This document shows positions 10,277 to 51,778 of a stretch of DNA of 64,000 nt, one piece after another. The notes under the pieces were generated by a model. That model searched no databases, was not told the DNA's origin, and saw only the letters and a program-made list of their open reading frames with translations. Numbering within the stretch: the first letter of the stretch is position 1; each line of letters opens with the position of its first letter. The DNA comes from Escherichia coli (GTDB lineage: Bacteria; Pseudomonadota; Gammaproteobacteria; Enterobacterales; Enterobacteriaceae): the NCBI RefSeq assembly GCF_003991155.1, contig NZ_CP031293.1; one strand, given 5' to 3'. Position numbers and translations under genes: made by a program.

Positions 10277-10281
10277 ACCGG

Positions 10282-15434: not shown

Positions 15435-15734
15435 ATGACAAAAACAGTATCAACCAGTAAAAAACCCCGTAAACAGCATTCGCCTGAATTTCGCAGTGAA
15501 GCCCTGAAGCTTGCTGAACGCATCGGTGTTACTGCCGCAGCCCGTGAACTCAGCCTGTATGAATCACAGCTCTACAACTGGCGCAGTAAACAGCAAAATC
15601 AGCAGACGTCTTCTGAACGTGAACTGGAGATGTCTACCGAGATTGCACGTCTCAAACGCCAGCTGGCAGAACGGGATGAAGAGCTGGCTATCCTCCAAAA
15701 GGCCGCGACATACTTCGCGAAGCGCCTGAAATGA
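15435..15734 (+). CDS. insE: IS3 transposase OrfA
   Basis: [29 protein letters not shown]... matches IS3 OrfA; ORF-track start 15426 is an upstream GTG. Confidence 0.85.
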
Positions 15735-16597
15735 AGTATGTCTTTATTGAAAAACATCAGGCTGAGTTCAGCATCAAAGCAATGTGCCGCGTGCTCCGGG
15801 TGGCCCGCAGCGGCTGGTATACGTGGTGTCAGCGGCGGACAAGGATAAGCACGCGTCAGCAGTTCCGCCAACACTGCGACAGCGTTGTCCTCGCGGCTTT
15901 TACCCGGTCAAAACAGCGTTACGGTGCCCCACGCCTGACGGATGAACTGCGTGCTCAGGGTTACCCCTTTAACGTAAAAACCGTGGCGGCAAGCCTGCGC
16001 CGTCAGGGACTGAGGGCAAAGGCCTCCCGGAAGTTCAGCCCGGTCAGCTACCGCGCACACGGCCTGCCTGTGTCAGAAAATCTGTTGGAGCAGGATTTTT
16101 ACGCCAGTGGCCCGAACCAGAAGTGGGCAGGAGACATCACGTACTTACGTACAGATGAAGGCTGGCTGTATCTGGCAGTGGTCATTGACCTGTGGTCACG
16201 TGCCGTTATTGGCTGGTCAATGTCGCCACGCATGACGGCGCAACTGGCCTGCGATGCCCTGCAGATGGCGCTGTGGCGGCGTAAGAGGCCCCGGAACGTT
16301 ATCGTTCACACGGACCGTGGAGGCCAGTACTGTTCAGCAGATTATCAGGCGCAACTGAAGCGGCATAATCTGCGTGGAAGTATGAGCGCAAAAGGTTGCT
16401 GCTACGATAATGCCTGCGTGGAAAGCTTCTTTCATTCGCTGAAAGTGGAATGTATCCATGGAGAACACTTTATCAGCCGGGAAATAATGCGGGTAACGGT
16501 GTTTAATTATATCGAATGTGATTACAATCGGTGGCGGCGGCACAGTTGGTGTGGCGGCCTCAGTCCGGAACAATTTGAAAACAAGAACCTCGCTTAG
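15731..16597 (+). CDS. insF: IS3 transposase OrfB (DDE integrase domain; made as OrfAB fusion by -1 frameshift)
   Basis: 288 aa with DDE motif region (…HTDRGGQY…CYDNA…). Confidence 0.85.
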
Positions 16598-16911
16598 GCC
16601 TGTGTCCATATTACGTGGGTAGGATCAGTGTTGCTGTTGATTTACAGCGCCAGAAAGCGTTCTGATTGCGTTTCTGACGTTTTGTTTGCGCGTTCTGTTG
16701 ATCCGTTTCCCTTCAGGCTTTGTAGTTTTTAAAAAACATTTATGCCGTTGTTGTGTGTTTTACTCTGCGTGTAGGTTTATTTTTTCTTCGTGGGGGATTC
16801 ATTCTGTTTTAATCAGGAGCCATTGGCGTTGCTCAATGGCGGGATGCCGTAAAGTTTTACCGCAGTGATTAATGATGTGAAGTCAATCCAAATCAACGGA
16901 GATCTCTCATC

Positions 16912-17643
16912 ATGAATCAACCAATACACAATGCTTACTGGTTATCCCGTTTTGAAAGTATTCTCAACAGTGCCCTGGCGCAACACCGTGCCGTCTCGTT
17001 AATCCGGGTGGATTTACGTTTCCCTGAGTATATGCCTGTCACCATCATGGATCCCGATCCGGATTCAGCGGTGATTTCCCGTTTTTTCGCATCCCTGAAA
17101 GCCAAAATTCAGGCTTACCAGCGGAAAAAAAGATGGGCCAATCAGCGTGTGCATGCAACCAGCCTGCGTTATTTCTGGTGCCGGGAGTTCGGCAAGATGT
17201 ATGGCAGGAAACATTATCACGTGATATTACTGCTCAACAAAGATACCTGGTGCTCGCTCGGGGATTTCAGCGAACCGTCTTCGCTGGCGACGATGATCCA
17301 GGAGGCATGGTGCAGCGCCCTGCATCTTGAGCCCTGGCAAGGCGATGGCCTGGTCCATTTTTCCAGGTGGACGCCTTCCCGTAAACCGACATCGTCTGAT
17401 GCTCGCCCTTCTTCCGATGACACGCCTTTGTCGGGTGGATGTTCTGATACCAGGAAGGCTTCAGACAAAAAGCCAGGTGAAGCCGCTGTGCTCTGGATCA
17501 AGCGTGGTGATGTGGAAGCGCTGCAGAAAGCCCGGAACAGAGCCAGTTATCTCGTGAAATATGAGACGAAGCAGCATGACGGTTCCGGGCAACGTAATTA
17601 TGGTTGCAGTCGTGGGCCGGGGCGTCTACTGGATGGCAGGTGA
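16912..17643 (+). CDS. YagK/YfjJ-family protein (inovirus Gp2-like domain)
   Basis: 243 aa; …SLIRVDLRFPEY… and …HYHVILLL… motifs typical of the family. Confidence 0.55.
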   Translation: MNQPIHNAYWLSRFESILNSALAQHRAVSLIRVDLRFPEYMPVTIMDPDPDSAVISRFFASLKAKIQAYQRKKRWANQRVHATSLRYFWCREFGKMYGRKHYHVILLLNKDTWCSLGDFSEPSSLATMIQEAWCSALHLEPWQGDGLVHFSRWTPSRKPTSSDARPSSDDTPLSGGCSDTRKASDKKPGEAAVLWIKRGDVEALQKARNRASYLVKYETKQHDGSGQRNYGCSRGPGRLLDGR

Positions 17644-18163
17644 ACCCGGTAAAACAGCATCCGGTGCCTGAGCGTATACCACGGTCAGGACGTTGGCTGA
17701 CGCCCTTAGCTCGTTTTCTGATAATCGCCCTGAAGTCATGAAACGGTATTTTTATCTGCTTCCATTCTCATGTTCATATTTCCCCTTACACTTTCACTGT
17801 CTGTCATTGGAAGTACCGATTTATTTTGGTGCTGCTCACTTACTGCCATTCACGGAAGAGGATAGTGGTGAACCGTACGATCCTGACTGCTGGCGAGGGA
17901 AGGTTCAGAACTGGTATGAGGTTTAGTGCTGGAAGATGACTTTGAATCCCGGACTGAGCAGTGAGGGGGCAGTGGGAGGATGCTCTGGTGTAACAGGCCT
18001 GGATTGCAAAATACAAAACCGGTTGTACACTCGTAACGGGCAAAAGGATACGGGCAATAACACGTGGTACCCGGTGAGACAGGATCTTGTATCGCATTAC
18101 CGGGAATATTCTGACAGGTGAAATGTTCTGATAAGAATCATCCTGAGGGAGGATACAACGGAT

Positions 18164-18616
18164 ATGCACGTTATTAACAGCGGCATTCGTGATGTGAAAT
18201 TTGGTGAAAATGTGAAAGTCGTCATGCCAGTAAACCTCTATGAATGTGAACTGGGGGATGATGTTTTTATCGGTCCCTTTGTGGAAATACAGAAGGGATG
18301 CATCATTGGCAAGCGGAGCCGAATTCAGTCCCACAGTTTCATCTGTGAGAACGTCATTTTAGGTGATGGCTGTTTCATCGGTCATGGCGTAACTTTTGCT
18401 AATGATCTTTTTAAGTGTGGTGGTCCCGATGCCTCTGCAGAAAGCTGGATACGTATCGTATTAGGTAACACTGTAACAGTGGGTAGCGGAGCGACTATTT
18501 TAACAACAGAAATTTGCAGTGGAGCAGTGATTGGGGCTGGTAGTGTGGTTACAAAGCCCGTGCTGGTAAAAGGCGTGTATGCCGGTAATCCAGCCAGACT
18601 TTTGAGAACGCTTTAA
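18164..18616 (+). CDS. Hexapeptide-repeat (left-handed beta-helix) acetyltransferase
   Basis: 150 aa with repeated [LIV]G..[LIV] hexapeptide pattern. Confidence 0.65.
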   Translation: MHVINSGIRDVKFGENVKVVMPVNLYECELGDDVFIGPFVEIQKGCIIGKRSRIQSHSFICENVILGDGCFIGHGVTFANDLFKCGGPDASAESWIRIVLGNTVTVGSGATILTTEICSGAVIGAGSVVTKPVLVKGVYAGNPARLLRTL

Positions 18617-19151
18617 TTATTATATTTACAAATCGTAAGCCAGAATTGACTCCAGACCATTATGTGCCTTATTCACCATGAGTGAAATGCGGGATGAGCC
18701 TGCAAGTTAAGAGGATATCGGAAACCAGCAACCAGGGCAGTGAGAGCGCTGTCGGGGTCATTGATATCTCCGAAGGGAAGCCCTGGTATAAGGTGTTTGC
18801 ATAAAATTATTAAACAGGCTCATTTTTAGCGATCCTCATGAAATTCATCGTAACATCCTGAATATCTTATGGTGTTTCCTGTCATCTCCGGTATTTATTC
18901 CGTTCATGCAAATAACCTGATGAAACAGGGCAACGCCATAAAACCGGATAAGGACAACATGGATTAACGATAAAAATTGTGATCCTGTTTTCATTTTTCA
19001 CTTTTTGATTCTGGACTGGTATTTACATTTCTAAAAACAGGCATAAAGTGAACACATGTTTGATTTTGAATATATGTTCAACTCTATCTGCGTGGTCGAA
19101 TAGAAATACAGATTTATTATTTTTGTGTTTTTAAATGTCAGGAGATGTGCC

Positions 19152-20087
19152 ATGTGTGATAAGGAATACATCATCACAATTGGCTCTGCCAATATAGATA
19201 TAGCCGGATATTCGTATGCCTCCTTAAATTATGCTGATTCTAACCCGGGGAAGATTAAATTCACGCCCGGAGGTGTGGGGCGTAATATTGCACATAATCT
19301 TGCTCTGCTGGGTAAAAAATCATGGCTGATGTCAGCTGTGGGAGATGATTTCTACGGGCAATCATTATTAGCACAAACGACTCAGTCCGGCGTTAATGTT
19401 GATAAATGTCTGATTGTTAATGGAGAAAATACCTCAAGTTATTTATCACTTCTCGATAAAACCGGTGAAATGTTGGTGGCAATAAATGACATGACGATTA
19501 GTGAACATATTTCAGCTGAGTTTTTATCACAGCATATTGATTTTATTCAGGGAGCGAAGGTTATTGTTGCAGACTGTAATATCAGTGAGTCAACACTTGT
19601 CTGGCTACTGAATAATGCAGGTAAGGTTCCGGTATTTGTTGACCCGGTATCTGCATGGAAGTGTGTCAAAATTCGTGAACATTTAGCACAAATTCATACT
19701 CTCAAGCCCAACCGGCTTGAAGCAGAAACACTCAGTGGTATTTCGCTTTCAGATCGGAATGATGCTGAAAAAGTGGCGGTATGGTTCCATACACATGGTC
19801 TGAATCGCCTTGTGCTCAGCATGGGGGGGGATGGAGTTTATTACAGCGAACTGTACGGAGCCAGCGGCTGGTCGCCGCCAGTAAAAACACAGGTGGTGAA
19901 CGTTACGGGGGCAGGGGATGCCATGATGGCAGGGCTGGCTTCCTGCTGGGTTGATAATATGCCATTTATTGATTCCATTCGATTTGCACAGGGGTGTTCA
20001 TCAATGGCGCTGGCCAGTGAGTATACCAATAATCCTGAATTATCTGTTGCTAACGTTAAAAGCTTAGTGGAGAAACAGAATGTCTGA
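19152..20087 (+). CDS. PfkB-family kinase, pseudouridine kinase (PsuK/YeiC)-like
   Basis: ORF 19125..20087 trimmed to Met10 after an AGGAGA ribosome-binding site; PfkB motifs GGVGRNIA and GAGDA. Confidence 0.75.
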   Translation: MCDKEYIITIGSANIDIAGYSYASLNYADSNPGKIKFTPGGVGRNIAHNLALLGKKSWLMSAVGDDFYGQSLLAQTTQSGVNVDKCLIVNGENTSSYLSLLDKTGEMLVAINDMTISEHISAEFLSQHIDFIQGAKVIVADCNISESTLVWLLNNAGKVPVFVDPVSAWKCVKIREHLAQIHTLKPNRLEAETLSGISLSDRNDAEKVAVWFHTHGLNRLVLSMGGDGVYYSELYGASGWSPPVKTQVVNVTGAGDAMMAGLASCWVDNMPFIDSIRFAQGCSSMALASEYTNNPELSVANVKSLVEKQNV

Positions 20088-21015
20088 AATAACCATTTCT
20101 TCTGAATTACTGCAAATTTCACCGGAAGTACAGGATGCCATTAACAGTAAAAAACCTGTTGTTGCTCTCGAGTCAACAATTATCTCACATGGTATGCCTT
20201 TTCCTCAGAATGCTCAGACGGCTATTGAAGTCGAAGAAACTATACGTAAACACGGAGCAGTACCAGCCACCATTGCCGTTATTGGCGGTGTAATGAAAGT
20301 CGGGTTAAGTAAAGATGAGATTGAATTACTGGGTCGCGAAGGACATAACGTTACCAAAGTCAGTCGCCGGGATTTACCTTTCGTTATTGCTGAAGGAAAA
20401 CATGGTGCAACAACGGTAGCTTCAACCATGATTATTGCTGCTCTTGCCGGAATTAAAGTTTTTGCCACAGGAGGAATTGGCGGCGTTCATCGCGGTGCAG
20501 AACACACTTTTGATATTTCAGCCGACCTACAGGAACTGGCACATACTAATGTCACCGTGGTTTGTGCAGGCGCGAAATCCATTCTCGATTTAGGGTTAAC
20601 CACGGAATATTTAGAAACATTTGGTGTACCTTTAATTGGCTATCAGACAAGATCATTGCCGGCATTTTTTTGCCGCACCAGTCCGTTTGAGGTCAGTATA
20701 CGTCTGGACAGTGCAAAAGAGATTGCCCGCGCGATGGCAGTGAAATGGCAAACCGGCCTGAACGGTGGTCTGGTTGTTGCCAATCCGATTCCGGAAGCTT
20801 ACGCCATGGCGGAAGAGAAAATTAATGCAGCAATTGACCAGGCCGTAAAAGAAGCGGAAGTGCAGGGCATTACCGGTAAAGAAAGCACACCGTTCCTGCT
20901 GGCACGGGTGGCAGAATTAACCGGTGGTGACAGTCTGAAATCAAATATTCAGCTGGTATTCAACAACGCAGTTCTGGCCTGTGAGATAGCAAAAGAATAT
21001 CAACAAATTGTCTGA
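20080..21015 (+). CDS. Pseudouridine-5'-phosphate glycosidase (PsuG/YeiN, IndA family)-like
   Basis: 311 aa, collinear with PsuG; start overlaps the upstream kinase stop. Confidence 0.8.
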   Translation: MSEITISSELLQISPEVQDAINSKKPVVALESTIISHGMPFPQNAQTAIEVEETIRKHGAVPATIAVIGGVMKVGLSKDEIELLGREGHNVTKVSRRDLPFVIAEGKHGATTVASTMIIAALAGIKVFATGGIGGVHRGAEHTFDISADLQELAHTNVTVVCAGAKSILDLGLTTEYLETFGVPLIGYQTRSLPAFFCRTSPFEVSIRLDSAKEIARAMAVKWQTGLNGGLVVANPIPEAYAMAEEKINAAIDQAVKEAEVQGITGKESTPFLLARVAELTGGDSLKSNIQLVFNNAVLACEIAKEYQQIV

Positions 21016-21098
21016 TATAAATGAACGGGCAGTGTGAGGTCGCCCGAAATTACCTGAACCAGATTCCGTGTCTGGTTCAGGTATAAGGGGAGAGCATT

Positions 21099-22349
21099 AT
21101 GGACATCATGAGAAGTATAGTGGGAATGGCAGTATTGCTGATAATTGCATTTCTACTATCAGTGAATAAAAAACGTATCAGTTTACGTACCACAGGAGCT
21201 GCACTGGTTCTTCAAATCGCGATTGGTGGGATCATGCTCTATTTCCCCCCGGGGAAATGGCTGGTTGAACAGGCTGCACTGGGCGTACATAAAATTATGT
21301 CTTACAGTGATGCGGGCAGTGCCTTTATTTTTGGCTCTCTGGTAGGGGACAAAATGGACGTACTGTTCGATGGGGCGGGTTTTATCTTCGCCTTCCGTGT
21401 ACTTCCTGCCATCATTTTTGTTACAGCGCTTATCAGTCTGCTGTACTACATCAGAGTGATGGGGGGGCTTATCCGTATTCTGGGGGGGATTTTTCAGAAA
21501 GCTCTGAACATAAGTAAAGTTGAGTCATTTGTGGCAGTAACGACAATTTTCCTGGGGCAAAACGAGATCCCGGCAATTGTAAAACCGTTTATTAATCGTC
21601 TGAATCGTAATGAATTATTTACTGTCATCTGCAGTGGGATGGCTTCGATTGCCGGTTCAATGATGATCGGCTATGCCGGGATGGGGGTTCCGATTGACTA
21701 TTTGCTGGCGGCGTCGTTGATGGCGATCCCGGGGGGGATCCTTTTTGCCCGTATTCTGAGTCCGGCCACAGAAGAATCAAAAGTCACTTTTGAAAATCTT
21801 TCTTTCACTGATACTCCTCCCAAAAGTGTTATTGAAGCAGTGGCCAGCGGGGCGATGACCGGGTTGAAAATCGCTGTCGGAGTTGCAACGGTAGTGATGA
21901 CCTTTGTTGCTATTATTGCTCTGATTAACGGTATAATCGGTGGTATCGGAGGCTGGTTTGGTTATGGTAATATTACCCTTGAGGGCATTTTCGGCTGGAT
22001 TTTGGCTCCCCTTGCGTGGATCATGGGCGTTGACTGGGCGGATGCTTCACTGGCAGGAAGTCTGATTGGTCAGAAGCTGGCAATTAACGAATTTGTTGCT
22101 TATCTCAATCTTTCACCCTATTTACAGCCAGGCAGTACGCTTGATGTGAAAACCACCGCAATTATTTCTTTTGCACTGTGTGGTTTTGCCAACTTTGGCT
22201 CCATTGGTGTGGTGGTGGGTGCCTTTTCAGCCATATCACCTCAGCGTGCACCTGAAATTGCACAACTGGGCATGCGTGCACTGGCGGCGGCCACCCTGTC
22301 AAACCTGATGAGTGCGACTATCGCTGGTTTTTTCATTGGGCTGGCATAA
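21099..22349 (+). CDS. NupC-family nucleoside transporter (PsuT/YeiM-like)
   Basis: 416-aa polytopic membrane protein with NupC-like sequence. Confidence 0.8.
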   Translation: MDIMRSIVGMAVLLIIAFLLSVNKKRISLRTTGAALVLQIAIGGIMLYFPPGKWLVEQAALGVHKIMSYSDAGSAFIFGSLVGDKMDVLFDGAGFIFAFRVLPAIIFVTALISLLYYIRVMGGLIRILGGIFQKALNISKVESFVAVTTIFLGQNEIPAIVKPFINRLNRNELFTVICSGMASIAGSMMIGYAGMGVPIDYLLAASLMAIPGGILFARILSPATEESKVTFENLSFTDTPPKSVIEAVASGAMTGLKIAVGVATVVMTFVAIIALINGIIGGIGGWFGYGNITLEGIFGWILAPLAWIMGVDWADASLAGSLIGQKLAINEFVAYLNLSPYLQPGSTLDVKTTAIISFALCGFANFGSIGVVVGAFSAISPQRAPEIAQLGMRALAAATLSNLMSATIAGFFIGLA

Positions 22350-22367
22350 AAAATACAATCCCGGGTG

Positions 22368-23462
22368 TTACCCCCGGGATGTTTTTAACAGATATTGCGC
22401 GTTATTAACGGAAAGTGTTGGGTTATTGATGCTGGTGCTGGCACGTGACAGTGCTGCACATGCCATCGCAAAGTGAGCACTTTCCTGGAAACTACTTCCT
22501 TCCAGAAAACTGTAAAGCAGACCTGCCATAAAGCCATCATCTGCACCAAAGCTGTCCACAACGGCATGAACGGGCGGTGTGAGCAGAAATTGTTCTCCCT
22601 CTCTTTGGCTACAGAAAACGGATTCATCTCCCATCCAGACAAAAATCTGTTGCACACCCTGCTGATGTAGTGCGTTCACTGCGGTGAGTAGATCGGTCTC
22701 ATTGTTGACAGGGGAACCCCATAATATCTCCAGTTCTTTTTGTGTGGGTTTCAGGGTATGGATATGCGGAAGCCAGTTTTTTACATTAACAGCCTTAAAT
22801 TTCGACACTGTATCAATAAAAACGGGAATGCCGTCAGCGACCGTAAAGATCCATTCAAGGGCGGCAGGTGTCAGATTACAGTCAGCCAGCACCACGCCAG
22901 CGTGACGGATTAACATACGTGAGGCGTCCAGCAACTGCGGCGTCAGTTGTTGCAGAATATGGGTATCATTAATCGCCATCACTGTTTCTGCCTGTAGGTC
23001 GGCGATGGAGACATAAGTTGAAGTATTTTGTCCGTTCAGTCGAATACAATTGGTGACATTAACGCCGGCCAGGCGGGTCTGCTCCAGTAATGTTTCGCCA
23101 TAAAAATCATTGCCTACAGCAGATATCAGATGCACATTGCGGCCCAGAAGGGCGAGATTATGGGCGATGTTGCGTCCGACACCTCCGGCAGAGCAGTAAA
23201 TACTGCCCGGACTGGAGGATTTCTGTGGATAATGGATATCCGCCACCCCACGGATATCCATGTTAATCGCCCCAAGAACAACACAGTATTCCTGTTCTGT
23301 CAGGATGTAGCCTTTCCCTTTAATCGCACCTTTGCGCATCAGATCCATAATGTGTGCAGCAACACGCGACCGACTGATTTGTAAAATCTCAGCAATTTCA
23401 TTCTGCTGGATCAGTGGGTTGTGACGCAGGATCCTGAGTATCTCTTTTTCTCTGTTGTCCAT
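22368..23462 (-). CDS. HTH-domain + PfkB kinase fusion protein (YeiI-like)
   Basis: 364 aa; N-terminal winged-helix (ILRILRHNPLIQQNEIAEILQISRSRVAAHI) plus PfkB kinase motifs. Confidence 0.75.
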   Translation of the reverse strand: MDNREKEILRILRHNPLIQQNEIAEILQISRSRVAAHIMDLMRKGAIKGKGYILTEQEYCVVLGAINMDIRGVADIHYPQKSSSPGSIYCSAGGVGRNIAHNLALLGRNVHLISAVGNDFYGETLLEQTRLAGVNVTNCIRLNGQNTSTYVSIADLQAETVMAINDTHILQQLTPQLLDASRMLIRHAGVVLADCNLTPAALEWIFTVADGIPVFIDTVSKFKAVNVKNWLPHIHTLKPTQKELEILWGSPVNNETDLLTAVNALHQQGVQQIFVWMGDESVFCSQREGEQFLLTPPVHAVVDSFGADDGFMAGLLYSFLEGSSFQESAHFAMACAALSRASTSINNPTLSVNNAQYLLKTSRG

Positions 23463-25329: not shown

Positions 25330-25575
25330 AGCTTAAGGCCTGAGCCTCCGCTCCTGGAAACACTCCGTCGGTAAAACCTTACCACCTTGCTTAATGATGT
25401 GAACTGAAGTCAACGGAGATCATTCATCCTGAACCTGAATCCGGTGTTCTGTCCCTTATCTTCCCGTTCTGCTTCAGTTCTTCACTTATTCCATCAACCC
25501 CATCCGCAAACCATAACACGTCAGCGCATCCACGGGCAGGACGCGTTGTGGGCTGCGCATAACGGAACATATCTT

Positions 25576-25959
25576 ATGAATGCTATTCCTTATTTCGACT
25601 ATAGCCTGGCACCCTTCTGGCCATCTTATCAGAACAAAGTCATCGGCGTCCTTGAGCGTGCGCTACGTGAGCAGTCCTGCGCCCGGGTACGGCGGATCCT
25701 GCTTCGCCTGCCGGGGGAACATGACAACATCTTCAGTGACAGAAAAACCTGGTTCGGTATGGCCTTTATCGAAACTGTCAGTGCGCTGATGAATGCAACC
25801 CCCGGACGCGACCTCTGCTGGCTCCTGACCCGTCATCCTGAAAAGCCGGAATACCACGTGGTGCTGTGTGTCAGACAGGAGTATTTCGACGGCCCTGAAC
25901 TGGACCGGCTGATTCTGGATGCCTGGAGCAACGTACTGGGCTTCGCGTCACCGGGTTAA
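25576..25959 (+). CDS. YagK/YfjJ-family-like protein, short (paralog or fragment)
   Basis: ORF 25444..25959 trimmed to Met45; …ARVRRILLRLPGEHD… and …YHVVLCV… motifs. Confidence 0.4.
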   Translation: MNAIPYFDYSLAPFWPSYQNKVIGVLERALREQSCARVRRILLRLPGEHDNIFSDRKTWFGMAFIETVSALMNATPGRDLCWLLTRHPEKPEYHVVLCVRQEYFDGPELDRLILDAWSNVLGFASPG

Positions 25960-26219
25960 GCAAAGCCGTATCAGAAGCAGATCACCCGGGATGTAGTACT
26001 GGACAGTCGTTCGCCGGACTGCGAAGACCTGTTTAAAGACCTGATCTGGGCATTCAGCGATTTTGCCCGCGATCGTCGTGGTGTGTGCGATCCGGAAGCT
26101 CGTTGCCTTGCCGGTAATCCCGGGTATCCCGGATCTGCAGGACCGTTCTGAAAACACGGCTCAGCATCTTCTTCCGCATTTGCACAACCTTCATAAATCT
26201 CACAAAGGACATTCTGACC

Positions 26220-26453
26220 ATGTTGACCACAACAAACCACGACAGCGTGTTGCTGCGTGCCGACGATCCCCTGATCGACATGAACTACATCACCAGTTTC
26301 ACTGGCATGACAGATAAATGGTTTTACAAGCTGATCAGTGAAGGCCATTTCCCTAAACCCATCAAACTGGGGCGCAGCAGCCGCTGGTACAAAAGTGAGG
26401 TGGAGCAGTGGATGCAGCAACGAATCGAGGAATCCCGGGGGGCAGCAGCATGA
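26220..26453 (+). CDS. AlpA-family phage/island transcriptional regulator
   Basis: …MNYITSFTGMTDKWFYKLISEGHFPKPIKLGRSSRWYKSEVEQWM… is a typical AlpA HTH. Confidence 0.7.
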   Translation: MLTTTNHDSVLLRADDPLIDMNYITSFTGMTDKWFYKLISEGHFPKPIKLGRSSRWYKSEVEQWMQQRIEESRGAAA

Positions 26454-26704
26454 AACGTGTTGTAATGCCGGCGCTGGTATTGCGGAAATCAGCCCTGTCC
26501 CCGATGCTGGCGACACTCCCGCTCATCTTTCAGCTGACTCCTCTGGTCAGCCAACTGTTTGTCATCATTTCCTGACTGATTCGTCATTCCCTTCGTCCCG
26601 CCAGTCGCTGGTGTTTGTATTGTACCGTGCCGGTGTTGATGTGCGCTTTCCGTGTGTCTGCACCGGCTTAACAAAATTCAACAGGGTTTGAAAAGGAACA
26701 TTTC

Positions 26705-27253
26705 GTGCAAATAACCGAAGCCTTAATTTCAGAGCCGGGAGACATCCGGCGTTTTGTTCAGCAGGCGGTGGACCACTGGCCGCATCTGCTGGCATTTTAC
26801 TTCACACTCCATTCGGCAGAAGGAAATATCAACGGGCGACAGATTCATGCATTCTGTACTTCCTTTTACCGACAGGTGCACGAACGTATTACTGAGCGTA
26901 ATCACACGGCCAGTCCATCCTCGCCGGTGGTATTACGCTGGTTGCGGGAACAACATGGAGGAGCAACAATACGATGCCTGTTGCTGCTCAGCCAGACGAG
27001 CATTTGCCATCCGCGGGCCAGTGCCACGGTTGATGAACAATGTTCGCAAGTGGTGGATTTGCTGCAACAGAGCTGGCAGGTGATAAGTGCTGGCGGACAA
27101 TGCCGGGTGGAAAGGTGTTTTCGGGTTGCCCGGGGTGATACATCCGGCCAGTATGTTGCGTTAAAAACAGTCGCATTGTCTCTGGGGTTACCGGTTGTGA
27201 CCGCCATTACCCATCGTCCGGTACAGCGCTGTACATTGATTACAGCTCAGTGA
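26705..27253 (+). CDS. Hypothetical protein (possibly degenerate YagK/YfjJ-family)
   Basis: 182-aa ORF downstream of alpA. Confidence 0.4.
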   Translation: MQITEALISEPGDIRRFVQQAVDHWPHLLAFYFTLHSAEGNINGRQIHAFCTSFYRQVHERITERNHTASPSSPVVLRWLREQHGGATIRCLLLLSQTSICHPRASATVDEQCSQVVDLLQQSWQVISAGGQCRVERCFRVARGDTSGQYVALKTVALSLGLPVVTAITHRPVQRCTLITAQ

Positions 27254-27484
27254 ATCAGCGCTTTCTGGCTTTTCGTCGGTCATTCTGTCAACGCCACGAT
27301 GTTTGACCGTTATGGGGATGCGGACGATTTCCTGCACAGCGTTGTTTCACGGTGGTGGATGATGCAGCACCGCTGTTAAAAACAGTCGTTCAGTCCTTTG
27401 TGTTACCGGTTATGACAACAATCAGCTGGTGATGGTCGTGTGAACCAGCTGCGCTTCCGTTGATTCTTATGGACTGATAAAGTT

Positions 27485-27859
27485 TTGTCTGCTGAATCTT
27501 TATACGGAATTCTTTTCAGTATGCGTACACGAATTGATTATCTGGCGGATAAATACAGTTTTACTGAGCTGAATGAGTCTCCCCGTCTTCGCCGGCAGTG
27601 GCAGGATGTTCTGGAGGAGTGTCGGCAGACAGAGGCAGGGCCAGAAGAACGGTTGCGTATTGCACTGTTGAATGTGGATTACGTCACCAGTTTTGAACTG
27701 CCTTTTCGCTTGTTGCTTACCCGTACACCACAACTGACTGCTATGCTGCGTGAAGAATGGGATATCAGCCAGAAAAATGTGGTGTTCAACGATAAACGCT
27801 TTGGCTGCGTGTACAGCCTGAAGGCCAGTCTTTGTGGTGTGCTTCAGGCCGATGCTTAG
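27485..27859 (+). CDS. Hypothetical protein
   Basis: 124-aa ORF; no family recognised. Confidence 0.35.
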   Translation: MSAESLYGILFSMRTRIDYLADKYSFTELNESPRLRRQWQDVLEECRQTEAGPEERLRIALLNVDYVTSFELPFRLLLTRTPQLTAMLREEWDISQKNVVFNDKRFGCVYSLKASLCGVLQADA

Positions 27860-27862
27860 GCG

Positions 27863-28315
27863 TTATACGAATCCGGCAGAGTAACGGAAGCCGCGTGTAT
27901 GGCTCATTCCCGGAGAAGAATCCACGATGTGCATGTAAGAGTGCCAACCGACATCACCACGGAAGCCCTGCAGCGTATCGGCAATGGTTTGTTCCAGACC
28001 ATGCCGCTTACAGACCTCGAAATCAGTCACCGTGCAAGGTTCATAACCGCCAATCTGAAATGCCACCACCACAAAATCGGCATCCTGTAAGGCTTCTTTC
28101 TGTTGGGTGTGGCAGGTGATTTTGCCGCTGGCCCCTGCTGAATCCATCAGCTTACGCACCACAATATGCGACTCTTCCCGGCGGGTGGGATCAATGTCCA
28201 TCAGGGCAATATGCGCCGTTTTCAGCGCCTCACGATGGAACACATCACCAAGAATATTTTTAACGAAAATCGTCGAACCAGCGCCGATAAATGTAATTTT
28301 GGGTGCAGACATCAT
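27863..28315 (-). pseudogene. melA: 5' fragment of alpha-galactosidase gene melA (GH4)
   Basis: MMSAPKITFIGAGSTIFVKNILGDVFHREALKTAHIALMDIDP… matches the MelA N-terminus; reading frame ends after ~150 codons. Confidence 0.7.
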
Positions 28316-28596
28316 GCAGATCTCCTGGCTTGCTTGATAACTTCATCATGGCAGGCGAATCTGCAGAAAACCTCCGGCTTCCAGATTGAGAATTCCCATA
28401 AACTCAGATCCTGCGTGAAGCATCAGTAAATCTGAGTTTATGGGAATAAATTACCTGAAAAGAAGAGTTTTCGGCCTCATGATGCTCGGACGGACCCCTC
28501 TCCTCTCTGGGTAGAGGGTGAAAACCGTGCTCCCACTCGCAGTCATCCTCCCTCACTCCTGCCATAATTCTGATATTCCAGGAAAGAGAGCCATCC

Positions 28597-28764
28597 ATGA
28601 ATACAGATCTCTTTATGTGCAGCAGTGCTTTAATCATCCCCGTGCCAGTAATAGCAGGGGTGAAAGATCTCGAAATAACACTGATAATCAGGGCGACGAT
28701 CCCAGCCGGCTTCGCGTTTTTATCGCTGCCTGCCGCGCCTTTCTTCTCCAGCAGCACATTATAG
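28597..28764 (+). pseudogene. melR: Degenerate 5' end of melR (AraC-family melibiose regulator)
   Basis: Frame begins MNTDLFMCSS (MelR N-terminus) then diverges; divergent from the melA fragment across a ~280-bp gap, as in the mel locus. Confidence 0.35.
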
Positions 28765-28801
28765 AGCAGGCGATAAACCTGCTGTACCTCATTACCAATA
28801 A

Positions 28802-28978
28802 CTATCTGGAACTGAAGCCTTTCTCCACCACGCAGATCAGGCCAGGGAGGGCACCAATCTGCGCATTGTTAACCTTTGAGCTGTCGTTGAACTCGGGGTA
28901 AGCAATGGTGAGCATACGGATGTTTTCCGCACCGCCCATCACGTAGAGGATTTTGTCTGCTGTTTCGTTATAGTTCAT
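28802..28978 (-). pseudogene. Degenerate N-terminal fragment of a glucose-family PTS EIIB domain
   Basis: …ADKILYVMGGAENIRML…KVNNAQIGALPGLICVVEKG resembles BglF-type EIIB but lacks the catalytic Cys motif. Confidence 0.3.
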
Positions 28979-29398
28979 AGTGTCCCCTAGTGTTGGCGCA
29001 AAAAAGACCAAAACGGCAGTGGCAATGGCATTCTCCAGCGTTTAAACGGAGAGCCGGATGCGTTGAAAGGTGCTGCTCCGGTTCGGAGAGGAGATACTGG
29101 GAAATAGTTCGACTACCCCCTATCTCTTACTCTACTCTGGACAGGTTAACGATGAGATACCTCACAGTAATATTTGCTCTGTTCGCAAGAAAGCTAGTGG
29201 GATGGGTAATGTTGTTGGACTGAATCGCCACGGATAATCAGGCATTTCTGAGTTGTTTCAAGAAGGCGGCATTATTTGTGCTGCTCGTATCCCGGTCATC
29301 AGTGAACCGGTGAACGTAAATCAGCCGGAGGCACGATTTGGGCAAAAGAGATTTCCTGACAGGCAAGAAGCCAGCGAATGGCTGGCTTCCTGAAGGAT

Positions 29399-30646
29399 TT
29401 AGCCAAATTTAGGTAACACGTTAAAGACGTTACCGAACCAGCATAAAATTACGGTTATACCAAAGAGAATGACAATCGCCGGAATAAGATTGCCGCCCCA
29501 GACTGTGAACATCTGATTGGGAAATTTCTTGCGGGCTTTGATTGCCAGCACTGCGGGAATAATGACCGCCCAGATGGTGGCGCACAGTCCGGCACCGCCG
29601 ATCCCGTAAATAAAGCCGTTCGGGAAGATCAGATACAACAACGCGGGTGGCAGGAAGGTTAACAGCACGGTTTTGAAACGCCCGGCGTGGGAGTTATCAA
29701 TCTTAAACAGATCCGCCAGATAATCGAACAATCCCAGCGTGACACCAAAGAACGAACTGGCAACAGCTAAGTTAGAGAACACCAGCAGGCAAAACTCGAT
29801 AATCCCATGCTGTTTGGTGCCGAGGAATGATTTCACCAGCGAATCAACGTTGCCGCCTGAGGAGATTATCGCCTTAAAGCTTTCTCGCGGGATATTCCCC
29901 ATCGTGCAATAGAGCCAGAAGAGATAAATCACCAGCGCCAGCAGCGAACCGAAGACCACGCTTTTGATTAGCTTATCTTTGCGTTTTCCATAGCAAATAA
30001 TCAGGCTGGGAATATTGCCGTGGAAACCAAATGACGCCAGACACACCGGCAAAGCCATAAAGATATACGGGAAGTAAGACTTACCCGCAGTGGAGCTGGC
30101 TGCATCGCGCAGAATGGAATAATCGGCCTGGAAGAAGAGAGAGCCAAACACGATCACAAAGGAGATAATCTTCAGCCCGAGGAACAATGAGGTAATACGA
30201 CTGGCGGCTAACGAACTTATCCACAATACGCTGGCAACGAAAATGGCTGTGCAGACTCCGACAATACGTGGATTAGCGTGATAACTCAGATTCATTGATA
30301 TCGTTTCGCTAATGATTGCGCCGTTAGCAGAAATATAGGCATAAGTGAGGATATAGAGAACGAAGGCAACGGTAATACCGCTGATAATGTTCCAGGTGTT
30401 ACCGATTAAATCTTTGGCGATGGTGTTAAAACTGGATCCGACGGGATAGTTTAAATTTGCTTCTAATAACAATAACCCGGAATGAAGCATTGAAAACCAG
30501 GCAATGATAAGGATAAAGGCTCCCCAGAAAAACCAGGCACCGGCAAGATCAACAGGTAAAGCAAACATCCCACCGCCAATTACCGTACCGGCTATAACCA
30601 TAACACCCCAAAATGCAGAGTGTTTTTTTTCAGCTTGTTCAGTCAT
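29399..30646 (-). CDS. tnaB: Low-affinity tryptophan permease TnaB
   Basis: 415 aa; matches E. coli TnaB. Confidence 0.9.
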   Translation of the reverse strand: MTEQAEKKHSAFWGVMVIAGTVIGGGMFALPVDLAGAWFFWGAFILIIAWFSMLHSGLLLLEANLNYPVGSSFNTIAKDLIGNTWNIISGITVAFVLYILTYAYISANGAIISETISMNLSYHANPRIVGVCTAIFVASVLWISSLAASRITSLFLGLKIISFVIVFGSLFFQADYSILRDAASSTAGKSYFPYIFMALPVCLASFGFHGNIPSLIICYGKRKDKLIKSVVFGSLLALVIYLFWLYCTMGNIPRESFKAIISSGGNVDSLVKSFLGTKQHGIIEFCLLVFSNLAVASSFFGVTLGLFDYLADLFKIDNSHAGRFKTVLLTFLPPALLYLIFPNGFIYGIGGAGLCATIWAVIIPAVLAIKARKKFPNQMFTVWGGNLIPAIVILFGITVILCWFGNVFNVLPKFG

Positions 30647-30737
30647 GATGCCACCTTTAGATGAAGGCTATTTTTATTATTGAGGATGTAGGGTAAGAGA
30701 GTGGCTAACATCCTTATAGCCACTCTGAGTGTTTTAA

Positions 30738-32153
30738 TTAAACTTCTTTCAGTTTTGCGGTGAAGTGACGCAATACTTTCGGTTCGTAGGTAAAGGTTAA
30801 CCCTTTAATATTCGCCGCGTTCTCTTTCACATGTTTAAAGGCTTCAATAATGAAGTCCATATGTGTTTGAGTATATGTTGCGCGCGGAATGGTTAAACGC
30901 AGCAGTTCAGCCGGGCATGGCAGTTGTTTACCGGTTTTCGGATCGCGGCCTAACAGGAAAGAGCCAATTTCTACCGCACGGATACCGGCGACTTTATACA
31001 GCTCGCAGGCCAGCGCCTGTGCCGGGAACTGATCTGCCGGGATATGCGGCAGTAGTTTACCGGCATCAACGAATGCCGCGTGACCGCCCGCCTGCTGGCA
31101 GACAACGCCAATCTCTTCCAGGCCATCGACCAGATACTGCACCTGCGCAATACGATAAGCCAGCCAGTCCAGATTCATGCCGTCATACAGACCTACCGCC
31201 AGACGCTCCATAGCGCCGCCTTCCAGGCCGCCATATGTCGGGAAGCCTTCCTGCACCACGCAAAGGGTTCTGCATTCGGTGTACACATCAAAGAAGCTGT
31301 CGTCTTTCATGCACAGCAGGCCGCCCATCGGCACCATCGCATCTTTCTTGGCGGACATCGCCAGCATATCGGCATATTTGTAGGTTTCGCGGGTGATTTG
31401 CTCGATGGTCCAGTCTTTGTATTCTGCTTCACGCTGCTTGATGAAATAGGCGTTTTCGGCAAAGCGTGCGGAGTCCATTACCACCGGAATATCGTATTTC
31501 TTCGCGATGCTGTACATCGCTTTTAAGTTTGCCAGTGAAACCGGCTGACCACCTGCGGAGTTACTGGTGATGGTTGCAACGATATACGGCACGTTATTCG
31601 GGCCAACTTCTTCAATACCGCGTTCTAATCCCTCAAGGTCAAAGTTGCCTTTAAAGTCGTAACGCACGCCCGTATCGAAGGCTTCTTTGATATAGACGTT
31701 ACGCACGGTACAGCCGTTAATCTGGCTATGGCCCTGCGTGGTATCAAAGAAATAGTTAGAGAACGCCACCATTTTGCTGCGATCCAGGCCTTTTTCCTGC
31801 TCGCGTTTTTTAATCAGTACCGGAATATAGATTTGCTCTGCACCACGGCCCTGGTGAGTCGGAATAGTGTATTGATAACCAAAGATATTTTTCACTGACT
31901 CGGCTAACGCGTAGTAGCTGCGGCTGCCGCTGTAAGCTTCGTCGCCGCGCATCATCGCGGCCTGCATACTCTGCGTCACCGCCCCGGTACCGCTGTCGGT
32001 CAGTAAATCGATAAACACATCTTCACTATCCAGCAGGAACGGGTTCATGCCGGCTTTAATAATTGCTTCTTCACGATAAGCGCGAGTGGTACGTTTTACT
32101 GGCTCAATAACACGAATGCGGAACGGTTCAGGGAGATGTTTAAAGTTTTCCAT
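30738..32153 (-). CDS. tnaA: Tryptophanase TnaA
   Basis: ORF 30738..32168 trimmed to [11 protein letters not shown] (471 aa); matches E. coli TnaA. Confidence 0.9.
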
Positions 32154-32359
32154 TACGTAATCCTTCATTTATTTTAAGGACAGAAAATTACGGAGATATT
32201 GCAAATGCAATACCCGATAGTTCGCTAAAATATTTGCAAGAGACATCATTTATAAAAATGAATGATAGTCTTTACAAAAGCAGAAATAAGATATGCCAAA
32301 CAGACAGGTTAGATGGAATTCAATCTATTTGACAAAAATGATGGTTACAGAAAGGCAAG

Positions 32360-32434
32360 TTAAGGGTGGTGTTCAACAATCTTGTTGTCGATATTGAACC
32401 ATTTTGAGGTCACACATATATGTAAGATATTCAT
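32360..32434 (-). CDS. tnaC: tna operon leader peptide TnaC (24 aa)
   Basis: Minus-strand ATG AAT ATC TTA CAT ATA TGT GTG ACC TCA AAA TGG TTC AAT ATC GAC AAC AAG ATT GTT … CCT TAA gives MNILHICVTSKWFNIDNKIV..P with Trp12 and Pro24, ~205 bp upstream of tnaA. Confidence 0.75.
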   Translation of the reverse strand: MNILHICVTSKWFNIDNKIVEHHP

Positions 32435-32509
32435 AATGCACTTATCCTCGAAAGACACGAGGTTACAGTATAATACTCAAGAAATTTGTCTATCCTGAAA
32501 TTGTTTAAA

Positions 32510-32525
32510 TGTGAATCGAATCACA
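32510..32525 (-). promoter_or_regulatory. CRP (CAP) binding site of the tna promoter
   Basis: TGTGAatcgaaTCACA perfect consensus half-sites ~80 bp upstream of tnaC; tna promoter is known to be CRP-dependent. Confidence 0.55.
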
Positions 32526-33488
32526 GTTGGTTATTAGTGATATAAAATGACAATGATTTTGCATCATTAAAAATATTTATCAATTACGTTGATAAAACTA
32601 TTACATGCAGGTGTTAATAAATGGTGATAAAAATGGTAAATGACAGAGATGTAATGTTGAAGATGATTCCTTGATGAGAATTATGTTCTACGGAAGTGGT
32701 ACATCAACTTTTTGGGAAGGTATATAAATAAAGCAGAATAGATCACGTTTGGCACACATCTGATTACTCATGTAATTAACTAATTTCAGCACGGTTTTTC
32801 TTGCTTTTTTAGAGTAATTAATATACCGATGCCCAAGATGAATATCATAAGAAATACTATCAAAATAATGTCTGGAATGAAATATTATACAGATGAATGA
32901 TTGCGGTTACCTGATGATTTAAATAATGAATATGTGATTTGCTTGTTATATAAGAAAATTTAAATATTGCCGATAGTGTATTGAATAGTGCCTGCTTAAC
33001 GGGGTCCCCTGTTAAGTTGTCAAGCATGTTTATGAGACTGCTGGGGGATAAAAAGTCCCGGCACACATCCTGCTAACAGGACATCACTGCACTGTCTGAG
33101 CGATAAACGCTTGGTTGTGTCGTATTCCACGGCTCATTTTACGTGTGTAGTACGTTTGGGTATTGGTTTTCGGAGAGCAGCAAAGGCTGACAGGAACAAT
33201 GCCCGTTTGATGAGTTTATTGTCTCGTCTTGGCGGATGTTCGCCACATATTGATGAACCGTAACGCTAGGTAAAAAGGGGAAGCAAGACCCCACTGTTTC
33301 ACTTCAAAAGCCTTGCTTATGTAGAGTGATGAGATGGAGTGCCAGAAGGCCTGGAGTGGCAGAATAACGACTGCGGCATGCGTACCGGGAGCGATCATGG
33401 TTTGTTGTACCAGTGCCTGAGTGATGTCTGCCGCGGGGCGTTTTTCAAGATGAGGCTCAAGCTTGCAGGGCTGCCAGCTTCTTTTCAC

Positions 33489-34883
33489 TTAGCGAAGCCA
33501 GTTTTTCCGGCCTACGGCTACTCCCCGTAAGGCGTTCTCTGCGATGTTGTTGTCGATTTCCACCCAGCCATTGCTGCAGTACACGTTCAGGCCATCCCAC
33601 TGTTTCAGCAGGTATGCGAACGCTTTTGCCGTATCTGAGTGACGCGACAGTGTTTTCATCTGTTGCTGTATCCAGTCATACAGTGACTGCATCAGTGGCG
33701 CGGCTCTGGCTTTTCTTGCCGCCAGACGCTGTTCTGCTGAACAGCCCCGGACCTCTGCCTCGATGGCATACAGTTCACCGATACGCTGCAGGGCTTCCGT
33801 GGTGATGTAGGTGGGCGCTCTTGCATGCACATCGTGGATTTTTCTCCGGGCATGAGCCATACACGCGGCTTCCGTTATTCTGCCGGATTCGTATAACGCC
33901 CGGTAACCACCGTAAGCATCGGCCTGAAGCACACCGCTGTAACCGGCCAGGTGATTTTGTGGATGGATACCTTTCCGGTCCGGACTGTACGCGAACCAGA
34001 CCGCCGGGGGCATCTGTGAACCGGCGTTACGGTCATCACGGACGTAGACCCACAGCCGGGCTGTCCGGGTTTTACCGCTGCCCGGCTCCTGGACCGGGAC
34101 GGGGATATCATCAGCATGGACTTTACCGGGCATCAGCACATACTGGCGCAGGACGTCATACAGCGGCTCCAGCAGTTCAGCAACAGCACCTGTCCAGCGC
34201 CCCAGTGTGGCACGGCTCAGCTCCACTCCCTGACGACGGTATATTTCTGACTGGCGGTATAACGGCAGATGGTCTGCATATTTCCCGGTGACAACATGGG
34301 CCAGAAGCCCCGCTCCGGCATAACTGCGTGCAATGGGTTTTGAAGGTACTGGTGCCTGCACGATATGGTCGCACCGGCAACAGGCCTGTTTCGGACGTTG
34401 TGTTTCGATAACCTTAAAGGCGCTGCTGATAAGCTCCAGTTGCTCTGACACATCACATCCCAGAGAACTGAGTTCACCACCACAGGCAGGACAGCATTCC
34501 TCTTCCGGCCGGATAACCCGGGTTTCACGGGGAAGTGAGGCCGGTAACGGTTTACGGGCTGAAGACTGGCGCAGGGCGGATGGCAGTACCGGGTCATATT
34601 GCTCACCCAGCGTTTCCGCCATTTCTTCCTGAAGTGCGCTGATTCGCTCCTGTGCTTCCTGTATCTGCCGTTCGGTTTTTGCACGAAGTTTTTCTGAGCT
34701 TTTACCGAACTGCATACGTTGCAGTTTCGCAACCAGCGCCTTCAGCCGGTTGATTTCGGAAGCATAAGCCGCCACCCGCTGTGAGAGCAGGCGGTTGTAT
34801 TCAGCCATCTGGCGGATGGTGTCCTGTTGCGTCTGCAACAGTGCCCGCAGGCGGGCGTTCTCATGAGCAAGTGAGGTGTCCAT
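33489..34883 (-). CDS. IS66-family transposase TnpC (orf3), C-terminally truncated
   Basis: 464 aa with the CxxC…CxxC zinc-finger region and DDE domain typical of IS66 TnpC. Confidence 0.75.
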
Positions 34884-34902
34884 ATCCTCACTTTACAACG
34901 GG

Positions 34903-35250
34903 TTATATGCGGATTCCAGCGCGTTCCGTTCGTTTCGGGTGCTTCCAGTTGATACCTTCAAGAAGCATGGATAACTGAGCCGGAGTAAGGTGCACCTTGC
35001 CGTCACGGGTGACTGGCCAGACGAAGCGGCCCCGCTCCAGGCGTTTGGTGAAGAGGCACAGTCCGTCACTGTCAGCCCACAACACTTTTATCTGGTCACC
35101 CCGGCGTCCGCGGAAGATGAACAGGTGTCCGGAGAACGGGTCATCCTTCAGGACGTTCTGAACTTTTGATGCCAGGCCGTTAAAGCCATTTCGCATATCG
35201 GTGATACCTGCAACCAGCCAGATACGCGAACCTGCAGGGAGAGATATCAT
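34903..35250 (-). CDS. IS66-family TnpB (orf2)
   Basis: 115 aa; MISLPAGSRIWLVAGITDMRNGFNGL… typical of IS66 orf2. Confidence 0.75.
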   Translation of the reverse strand: MISLPAGSRIWLVAGITDMRNGFNGLASKVQNVLKDDPFSGHLFIFRGRRGDQIKVLWADSDGLCLFTKRLERGRFVWPVTRDGKVHLTPAQLSMLLEGINWKHPKRTERAGIRI

Positions 35251-35927
35251 CAGTGGCTGCTCCCTTTTATTTCGCGGATAAGTGTCTGTAATAACGCCGG
35301 CGTCAGTTTACCTTTAAGCCTGAGAGTTCCGGCCGGCAGAACCAGCTCACAACACAGACTGTCGGACGGTGTATTTATCTGCTCTGGTTCCTGTGCGGGG
35401 GCCGGGATTTTATTATCCGGCTCCGGCGTTAACGTCACGGGAAGCAGTGCCGGCATATTTTTTCCGGAAGGCAGCAGGCCACCTTTCCGGTATTGATGGC
35501 GCCAGTTGAAGAGCAGGTTATCGTTGATTCCGTTTTCCCGGGCGATCTGCGCCACACAGGCTCCGGGCTGCAGTGACTGCTCCACTAAGGCGATTTTAAA
35601 CTCATAAGGGAAGTTGGGCCGCCGGGGACGTTTTTTTACCACGGGGGCTTCGGATATAACGGTGCTTTCAGGACGTACGACTGGTACCGTGGAAAATTGT
35701 CCGTAAAGGCAGGCATCAAGTTCCTGCTCCGACATGCCTGCGGGCAAAGGCCACGAAAGGCCAGCTCTCCGAAAGCGCACGAACATACTACAAACTGTTG
35801 ATTTTGGTACACCCAGGCGACGCCCGGCCACAACCCGGGGTAAATGTTCTTCAAAGTGAAGACGTAAAGCTTCAGTGATCCAGGTCCGGTGTTTCATACG
35901 ATAGTGTCCATTAAAAATGATGGACAT
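35250..35927 (-). CDS. IS66-family orf1 (TnpA) with N-terminal extension
   Basis: C-terminal half (…FPYEFKIALVEQSLQPGACVAQIARENGINDNLLFNWRHQY…) is IS66 orf1-like; N-terminal ~65 aa of unclear origin. Confidence 0.55.
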   Translation of the reverse strand: MSIIFNGHYRMKHRTWITEALRLHFEEHLPRVVAGRRLGVPKSTVCSMFVRFRRAGLSWPLPAGMSEQELDACLYGQFSTVPVVRPESTVISEAPVVKKRPRRPNFPYEFKIALVEQSLQPGACVAQIARENGINDNLLFNWRHQYRKGGLLPSGKNMPALLPVTLTPEPDNKIPAPAQEPEQINTPSDSLCCELVLPAGTLRLKGKLTPALLQTLIREIKGSSH

Positions 35928-51769: not shown

Positions 51770-51778
51770 GGAACGGCA

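Follow-up and report, generated by a model that had tools for sequence, protein, structure and literature searches.

A second tnaCAB operon carried in a 45-kb selC island of Escherichia coli

The tryptophanase operon tnaCAB is normally a single operon of fixed position in Escherichia coli, flanked by mnmE and mdtL. In a 64,000-nt stretch of contig NZ_CP031293.1 (assembly GCF_003991155.1), hereafter the window, a tnaCAB operon is found inside a mobile island, which raises the question of whether it was moved there, copied from the native locus or brought in from elsewhere. The operon is encoded on the minus strand and, in window coordinates, consists of tnaB (29399-30646), tnaA (30738-32153) and tnaC (32360-32434), encoding respectively a low-affinity tryptophan permease of 415 aa, a tryptophanase of 471 aa and the leader peptide MNILHICVTSKWFNIDNKIVEHHP of 24 codons (24 aa). 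The canonical operon is transcribed from a CRP-dependent promoter and regulated by tryptophan-induced ribosome stalling on TnaC and Rho-dependent attenuation. Based on the comparisons below, the window copy is very probably an extra, horizontally acquired tnaCAB operon with a mosaic allele, carried as cargo in a 45-kb selC island of a sequence type (ST) 457-type chromosome in which the resident operon was left untouched.

Two tna operons and an island at selC

A preliminary description of the window, made from its sequence alone, had noted that neither mnmE nor mdtL lies beside this operon and that its K-12 position is about 50 kb away. Both points hold. No mnmE or mdtL sequence is present next to the window copy, where homology stops at 29309 and 32525, and in a K-12-like genome selC (3,829,582) and tnaC (3,881,795) are 52 kb apart. 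It had also asked for a second tna copy at the mnmE-mdtL locus. This copy was found in the genome NZ_CP041996.1, which differs from the window by one base across positions 7000-47519. Here, an intact mnmE-tnaC-tnaA-tnaB-mdtL locus is located at 4,987,689-4,990,737, while the island tna is located at 93,400-96,435, approximately 98 kb away across the replication-origin region.

An island tna copy was found in 21 of 5,426 complete E. coli genomes, all 21 of which have two tna places; no island-type copy is present in 5,403 of the 5,424 complete genomes having a match. The 6.1-kb canonical locus is 100% identical in all carriers listed and in many single-tna relatives. Strains with the island tna possess two tna operons, the resident mnmE-tnaCAB-mdtL locus being untouched. 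As 21 complete genomes show this independently, an assembly artefact is very unlikely to explain the two copies. The arrangement is not universal in the lineage either, with many close relatives having a single tna operon and one of them an empty selC site. Two of the 21 carriers, MRY15-117 and MRY15-131, are documented as ST457 (PMC5430464). The remaining carriers are inferred to belong to the same lineage from their identical sequence and mostly identical coordinates, the sequence type being documented for two only. In a public assembly collection, the exact island TnaB was retrieved from 349 blocks and the exact TnaA from 299; every context read was the same island block, and no native donor context was seen among them. 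The literature searched contained no account of an additional tna operon, either in ST457 or in E. coli generally.

The island itself measures 45.1 kb (4898-49999) and is bounded at its distal end by attL (4874-4897, minus strand), an exact 24-nt copy of the 3' end of tRNA-Sec. On the attR side, the intact tRNA-Sec gene selC (50000-50094, minus strand) carries the same 24 nt at 50000-50023. Adjoining selC, a tyrosine-type integrase of 393 aa is annotated (48523-49704, minus strand). The island is absent from strain TCM3e1, which has a single tna operon and a 100% identical canonical locus, and in which setC, a rhuM fragment, tRNA-Sec and yicJ follow each other directly. The corresponding TCM3e1 locus (L063) matches the window on both sides, with 4320-9216 equal to window 1-4897 and 9178-23193 equal to window 49985-64000. 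The two alignments overlap by 39 bp at the att site, the position of 4874-4897 being held there by the intact tRNA, and the flanking core (setC, yicJ) is collinear. Because TCM3e1 matches both window flanks with this overlap, the 45.1 kb is a clean site-specific insertion that is absent from very close relatives. The island is inserted site-specifically at the selC 3' end, bears an integrase and carries the tna cargo in its middle part, which is scrambled by insertion sequences (ISs).

According to annotation, the island contains a CP4-like module with CbtA/YeeU, pseudouridine-utilisation genes, the tna module, IS elements and an otnK sugar-acid cluster. Several islands are known to occupy selC, including the locus of enterocyte effacement (LEE), SHI-2 and Tia-PAI in E. 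coli and Shigella, and SPI-3 in Salmonella. The window island resembles these in its insertion at the selC 3' end, tRNA direct repeat, tyrosine integrase, IS-rich mosaic structure and CP4-type CbtA/YeeU module, but differs in carrying metabolic cargo (tna, pseudouridine, otnK cluster) rather than a secretion system or toxin set. A deviant base composition was not seen, with island parts and flanking core both at 45-50% G+C and a single deviant stretch of 460 bp; such deviation is common in tRNA islands, but not obligatory. An IS1 copy (47519-48287, minus strand) is present in the window strain and absent from NZ_CP041996.1. This IS1 truncates a small helix-turn-helix gene (47206-47541) near the integrase.

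A complete regulatory unit with a mosaic sequence

The claim of the preliminary description that tnaC, tnaA and tnaB are intact with their CRP-dependent promoter was confirmed. All three frames are open and all three proteins pass the NCBIfam cut-offs, with 1010.6 bits for TnaA (equivalog TIGR02617, cut-off 825.8), 913.5 bits for TnaB (equivalog NF007235, cut-off 497) and 37 bits for TnaC (TIGR02616, cut-off 23.55). Every frame is open in at least 20 of the 21 complete carrier genomes. The CRP site TGTGATTCGATTCACA at 32525-32510 is identical to the canonical one. The promoter (32435-32525, minus strand), recognised by homology to the canonical locus, is 96-98% identical to the promoters of ST457, O157 and MS69-1 over the 91 nt from the CRP site to tnaC, compared to 88% for the K-12-type promoter allele. 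A simple sigma-70 scan, run on the island copy alone, misses the tna promoter; CRP dependence together with a poor -35 hexamer would explain such a miss. By homology alone, the island promoter appears intact. As a more general observation, the E. coli tna promoter occurs as two alleles approximately 10% apart over 91 nt (L059 ~4613-4703 versus L002 20739-20829). The first is the K-12 type, the second is common to ST457, O157 and MS69-1, and the island copy has the second.

At the other end, the tnaB 3' flank (29309-29398, minus strand) is homologous to the canonical tnaB-mdtL intergenic region. It contains the hairpin GAAGCCAGC-CATTC-GCTGGCTTC at 29389-29367, the same as the one following the canonical tnaB, and the tnaA-tnaB gap is 91 nt, as in the canonical operon. 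In a BLAST comparison, homology to the canonical locus of NZ_CP041996.1 is confined to 29309-32525, ending at the outer edge of the CRP site on one side and about 43 nt short of the expected mdtL start on the other. Since these limits coincide with the CRP-site edge and the post-tnaB flank, what was captured corresponds exactly to a single regulatory unit that begins with the CRP site and ends shortly beyond the tnaB terminator hairpin. A near-core operon like tna can thus be mobilised as an intact regulatory cassette.

To place the island allele, it was compared with five canonical E. coli alleles, by identity per segment and by synonymous divergence (dS) per tract. Over the whole 3.2 kb, it is 94.4-95.2% identical to every canonical E. 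coli locus among approximately 5,400 complete genomes. For tnaA, the best canonical allele, from unrelated strains, reaches 98.9%, whereas the resident allele reaches 98.2%. Island and canonical copies differ at more than 150 positions. At 127 positions, the island copy has a state found in none of the five alleles, and these private positions are unevenly spread, 70 of them falling within 300 bp (32425-32126; binomial p = 2e-38). Because of these private positions, and with no canonical locus above 95.2% overall or 98.9% in tnaA, the island copy is not a duplicate of the resident operon.

The tracts differ in their relation to E. coli. In tnaA, island and canonical alleles are 97.7-98.2% identical, compared to 97.7-98.1% among E. 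coli alleles, with a dS of 0.08-0.10 against 0.08-0.12 within E. coli. In tnaB, identity to canonical alleles is 95.6-96.4%, compared to about 98% among E. coli alleles. Here, the 3' half is within the E. coli range (dS 0.08-0.16 against 0.03-0.20), whereas the 5' half is about three times as divergent as within E. coli (0.17-0.20 against 0.04-0.08). Identity in tnaC is 92-93%. Judged by these values, the island copy is best described as a mosaic allele in which E. coli-type tracts (promoter, tnaA, tnaB 3' half) alternate with seemingly older ones, namely the diverged tnaB 5' half and a very diverged tract formed by the tnaC 3' half and the tnaC-tnaA spacer. At the protein level, island TnaA differs from the canonical protein at one of 471 aa (S34A, conservative) and TnaB at 10 of 415 aa, none of them truncating. 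Eight amino acid changes in the TnaB 5' half are absent from the five canonical alleles, while the 3' half is E. coli-like. The ratio of nonsynonymous to synonymous divergence (dN/dS) between island and canonical genes is 0.011 for tnaA and 0.077 for tnaB.

A nucleotide comparison with GTDB species representatives, a set that lacked E. fergusonii, E. marmotae, E. ruysiae and the E. coli representative, gave no better match than E. coli for any tract; overall identity is 90-95% for E. albertii, E. whittamii and three further Escherichia representatives. Metagenome scans with a spacer-specific 32-mer and the degenerate TnaC pattern WFNIDNKIVEHHP* returned 0 matches each. Among the plasmids searched, none carries the island allele, and the only plasmid tna is that of the Salmonella enterica plasmid NZ_CP022662.1 (132 kb, coyote faeces), with tnaA-tnaB at 89786-92545 and 81% identity. 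As in the window, tnaA and tnaB travel there as a unit on a mobile element into a non-native context. However, the Salmonella copy supplies a species without tna, whereas the recipient in the window already has tna and its extra copy is of the Escherichia type. The tna cluster of Haemophilus influenzae has also been described as horizontally transferred.

Leader peptide and attenuator spacer

The island operon shares gene order, strand, CRP site and terminator hairpin with the canonical operon, as well as the TnaC residues W12, D16, I19 and P24. Of these, W12, D16, P24 and also I19 are required for tryptophan-dependent stalling (PMC10941005, PMC3902921). Apart from its location at selC without mnmE and mdtL, and its presence in addition to the canonical operon, it differs in the diverged tnaB 5' half, a shorter spacer and three changes in tnaC, i.e. 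D21E, R23H and the stop codon UAA instead of UGA. At the sequence level, the island copy has each testable feature of a tnaCAB operon, with a merely putative Rho attenuator, and its carrier has those of a tRNA-integrated island. It is a known operon type in a new location with a noteworthy regulatory allele, an unusual gene-content variant and not a new system.

The R23H change has been studied in the laboratory. In E. coli, a tnaA'-'lacZ reporter with this change has a basal expression more than 20-fold higher, and the [L-Trp]0.5 for stalling is about 3-fold lower (van der Stel et al. 2021; PMC8429421). Most of the loss-of-function changes examined at W12, D16 and P24 are also partly suppressed by R23H (J Biol Chem 2024; PMC10941005), and a slowed accommodation of release factor 2 (RF2) has been proposed as the mechanism. 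Two laboratory variants, TnaC(R23H) and TnaC(R23F), are tryptophan-hypersensitive (PMC8429421, PMC10941005); the island TnaC has the substitution of the former in a peptide otherwise of the E. coli type. In contrast to the laboratory R23H constructs, which end in UGA and are read by RF2, it also has D21E, UAA and a very different spacer. The UAA stop is found in three other Escherichia species aligned as well, while UGA is found in E. coli only. UAA is also read by release factor 1 (RF1). As TnaC is reported to be released efficiently by RF1 (PMC8450073), R23H and the UAA stop could act in opposite directions.

The spacer (32154-32359, minus strand) corresponds to the Rho-dependent attenuator region of the canonical operon. 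It is 206 nt long, compared to 220 nt, and has 71-72% identity plus 14 nt of gaps, whereas spacers are 96-98% identical among E. coli and 83-95% between E. coli and other Escherichia species. The E. whittamii spacer, for example, is 83% identical to that of E. coli and the island spacer 72%, although the adjoining island tnaA is 98% identical. Directly after the tnaC stop, 18 of 21 nt are conserved, as is the tnaA Shine-Dalgarno region, but the central 150 nt carry many substitutions and are shorter by 12 nt. When scaled to dS, the change in this spacer is several times faster than that between Escherichia species. The excess could be due to a greater age of the tract, to a loss of constraint or to selection for a different regulation. 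Within the first 80 nt, C exceeds G (18 against 10), and the boxA-like CGCCCTTGA is CACCCTTAA in the island spacer. A loss of the Rho utilisation (rut) site was considered and is unsupported, since the C-over-G skew and the YC-dimer counts resemble the canonical ones. As a separate observation, the island spacer contains a 9-bp AU-rich hairpin GGGTATTGCA-TTTGCAATATCT followed by the T-run CCGTAATTTT (32194-32215, minus strand), which is terminator-like and tighter than the matching canonical sequence.

The intact promoter and frames suggest that the island operon would be transcribed from a cAMP-CRP-dependent promoter and yield active TnaA and TnaB. By analogy with the laboratory variants, R23H might further give it an induction threshold different from that of the native operon. 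A more specific proposal is that TnaC(D21E, R23H) and the remodelled spacer have re-tuned it naturally to a lower tryptophan threshold or a high basal level. We put this forward tentatively and on balance think it somewhat unlikely; the UAA stop and the remodelled spacer could counter R23H or act otherwise. If true, ST457-type strains would run two modules for tryptophan uptake and indole production with different set-points, which could aid the ecological success of this globally spreading, multidrug-resistant lineage, and the island would hold the first example of the laboratory ‘hypersensitive’ R23H allele found naturally in E. coli. As a major signal in E. coli, indole influences biofilm formation and persistence, tolerance to acid and drugs, and interactions with the host. 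A lineage with two operons offers a natural experiment on tna dosage and regulation, the R23H allele with its diverged attenuator provides test material for the structural and genetic model of tryptophan-sensing ribosome stalling, and the island spacer sequence is a convenient lineage and island marker for ST457 epidemiology.

Surroundings, origin and state of the island copy

The preliminary description also reported mel and phosphotransferase system (PTS) gene fragments on one side of the operon and a truncated IS66 element on the other. These were confirmed as a melR-melA fragment comprising the melA 5' part and the intergenic region (27971-28625, minus strand, 91-97% identity to E. coli mel), a beta-glucoside PTS IIABC gene fragment (28614-28978, minus strand) without an E. 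coli counterpart and 80% identical to a Pantoea plasmid, and a copy of ISCro1 of the IS66 family (33495-35927, minus strand). In the latter, tnpA (35250-35927) and tnpB (34903-35250) are followed by a tnpC truncated at its C-terminus. Four flanking features had been missed. On the tnaB side, these are an IS66-family transposase fragment (27824-27982, plus strand, about 88% identical to ISCro1) and a fragment of the domain V-VI region of a group II intron (29049-29135, plus strand; Rfam RF00029, 50.1 bits against a gathering score of 40), whose plasmid matches are ltrA-associated. On the promoter side, they are an AT-rich orphan stretch of 460 bp with 29% G+C (32526-32985) and an IS110-family, ISEc20-like transposase fragment (32998-33510, minus strand), frameshifted and missing its N-terminus. 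Farther left lies a common island backbone (YagK/YfjJ, AlpA-like, UCP030791) with a 91.5% match in many E. coli.

The AT-rich stretch matches only in island carriers, with no match in non-carrier E. coli genomes, plasmids or fetched loci, and could be donor-derived upstream DNA or an H-NS target. A composite transposon was considered and rejected. The two pieces of the IS66 family come from different elements and are inverted relative to each other, the right-hand ISCro1 is truncated, and the IS110 fragment and orphan DNA separate it from tna. No repeats bracketing the tna segment were found. The debris around tna points to repeated IS-mediated events on a plasmid or on the island. In a second island variant (L007, L056, L058), an IS1 insertion lies 100 bp upstream of the CRP site (window 32626), with a 498-aa sulfatase-family gene (PF00884) and a full-length IS66 element beyond it (L007 7254-8021; L056, L058 5319-7528). 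As the two variants are 100% identical over 25406-32626, the tna block has spread or been rearranged very recently.

How the operon came to lie here can now be weighed. The preliminary description offered translocation or duplication into a mobile island, or a large IS-mediated rearrangement. The mobile island and the second copy stand; translocation and copying from the resident operon do not. Movement of the sole tna operon from mnmE-mdtL to the selC region by translocation or IS-mediated rearrangement had the absence of mnmE and mdtL beside the island copy in its favour, and nothing else. It has practically no chance of being correct and is excluded, because the canonical locus is intact between mnmE and mdtL in the same genome, 100% conserved in the listed carriers, and two tna places exist in every carrier; the setC and yicJ core is moreover collinear with the empty-site relative. 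An intragenomic duplication, in which the resident ST457 tnaCAB was captured into the island (e.g. by IS66) and diverged there, would fit two copies on one chromosome about 98 kb apart, the flanking IS fragments and the 98.2% tnaA identity. However, the resident allele is no closer than those of unrelated strains (best 98.9%), and the copy carries 127 private positions, a spacer diverged by 28% plus 14 nt of gaps and a tnaB 5' half with a dS of about 0.18, in a block that is 100% identical between the two island variants. Duplication is therefore highly improbable and effectively refuted. Divergence in place is also ruled out because the canonical 6.1-kb locus is still 100% identical to that of island-free relatives.

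Within the preferred reading of an acquired extra operon, two further explanations concern its origin and its fate. The copy may be a xenolog from a more distant Escherichia-like donor, in which gene conversion in earlier hosts replaced the promoter, tnaA and the tnaB 3' half, leaving the spacer and the tnaB 5' half as surviving original tracts. The sharply block-wise divergence, with breakpoints in the middle of tnaC, close to the start of tnaA and in the middle of tnaB, agrees with this, and the E. coli-type tracts differ from the resident allele, pointing to conversion in another host or in the donor. Yet in no tract, spacer included, did a scan lacking the four representatives named above yield a species closer than E. 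coli, and the tnaB 5' tract (dS 0.18) would differ in age from the spacer (about 0.35 substitutions per site). We regard such a history as a serious candidate with somewhat less than even chances. Regarding its fate, the operon might be a silent passenger, transcriptionally inactive or functionally redundant and decaying into a pseudogene amid IS debris, which would fit an acquired origin as well. Its neighbours are indeed gene fragments (mel, PTS, intron, IS66, IS110), tnaA or tnaB is disrupted in occasional carriers, a stretch of 29% G+C lies directly upstream, and the spacer has diverged well beyond what is seen in the Escherichia species compared, possibly through a loss of constraint. On the other hand, the three frames, CRP site, promoter, tnaA Shine-Dalgarno region, the 21 nt after the tnaC stop and the terminator hairpin are intact, at least 20 of the 21 complete genomes keep all frames open, and the spacer divergence, approximately 2-4 times the dS of the adjoining genes, is above simple neutral decay. 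A silent passenger is therefore considered unlikely.

Several points nevertheless weigh against an acquired and functional extra operon. The donor lineage was not found in the species representatives, metagenomes and plasmids searched, and tna may either have come with the island or have been inserted later. The AT-rich upstream stretch could draw H-NS silencing, and the strong divergence of the spacer means that Rho-dependent control should not be taken for granted. The low dN/dS mostly reflects pre-transfer history, and with zero variation within the island clade across 25406-32626, selection since acquisition is not measurable. In one carrier locus (L005, 9033-9132), an internal deletion splits tnaA into 113 and 258 aa, and in NZ_CP191552.1 (L055 ~9508-9552) a 1-bp deletion causes a tnaB frameshift leaving 400 aa. 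As some carriers have such damaged genes, the island copy is dispensable.

Some further observations concern the neighbourhood of tna and selC in other genomes. In O157:H7 (L060 5003-6203) and MS 69-1 (L061 5014-6205), a ShET2/EspL2 type III effector gene lies directly upstream of the canonical tnaC in the position of mnmE, indicating that canonical loci, too, vary in what is inserted upstream of the tna CRP site. Beyond the left edge of the window (window 1-391 and upstream; NZ_CP041996.1 47392-64392), iatC, encoding a 3,321-aa inverse autotransporter, is found together with eilA and SipB/SipD-like type III translocator genes, all of which are absent between nepI and yicS in the K-12-like genome. 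Between setC and the selC att site, the window contains a rhuM fragment (4634-4795). This fragment is also present at the empty selC sites of the K-12-like and TCM3e1 genomes and is probably the scar of an older selC island.

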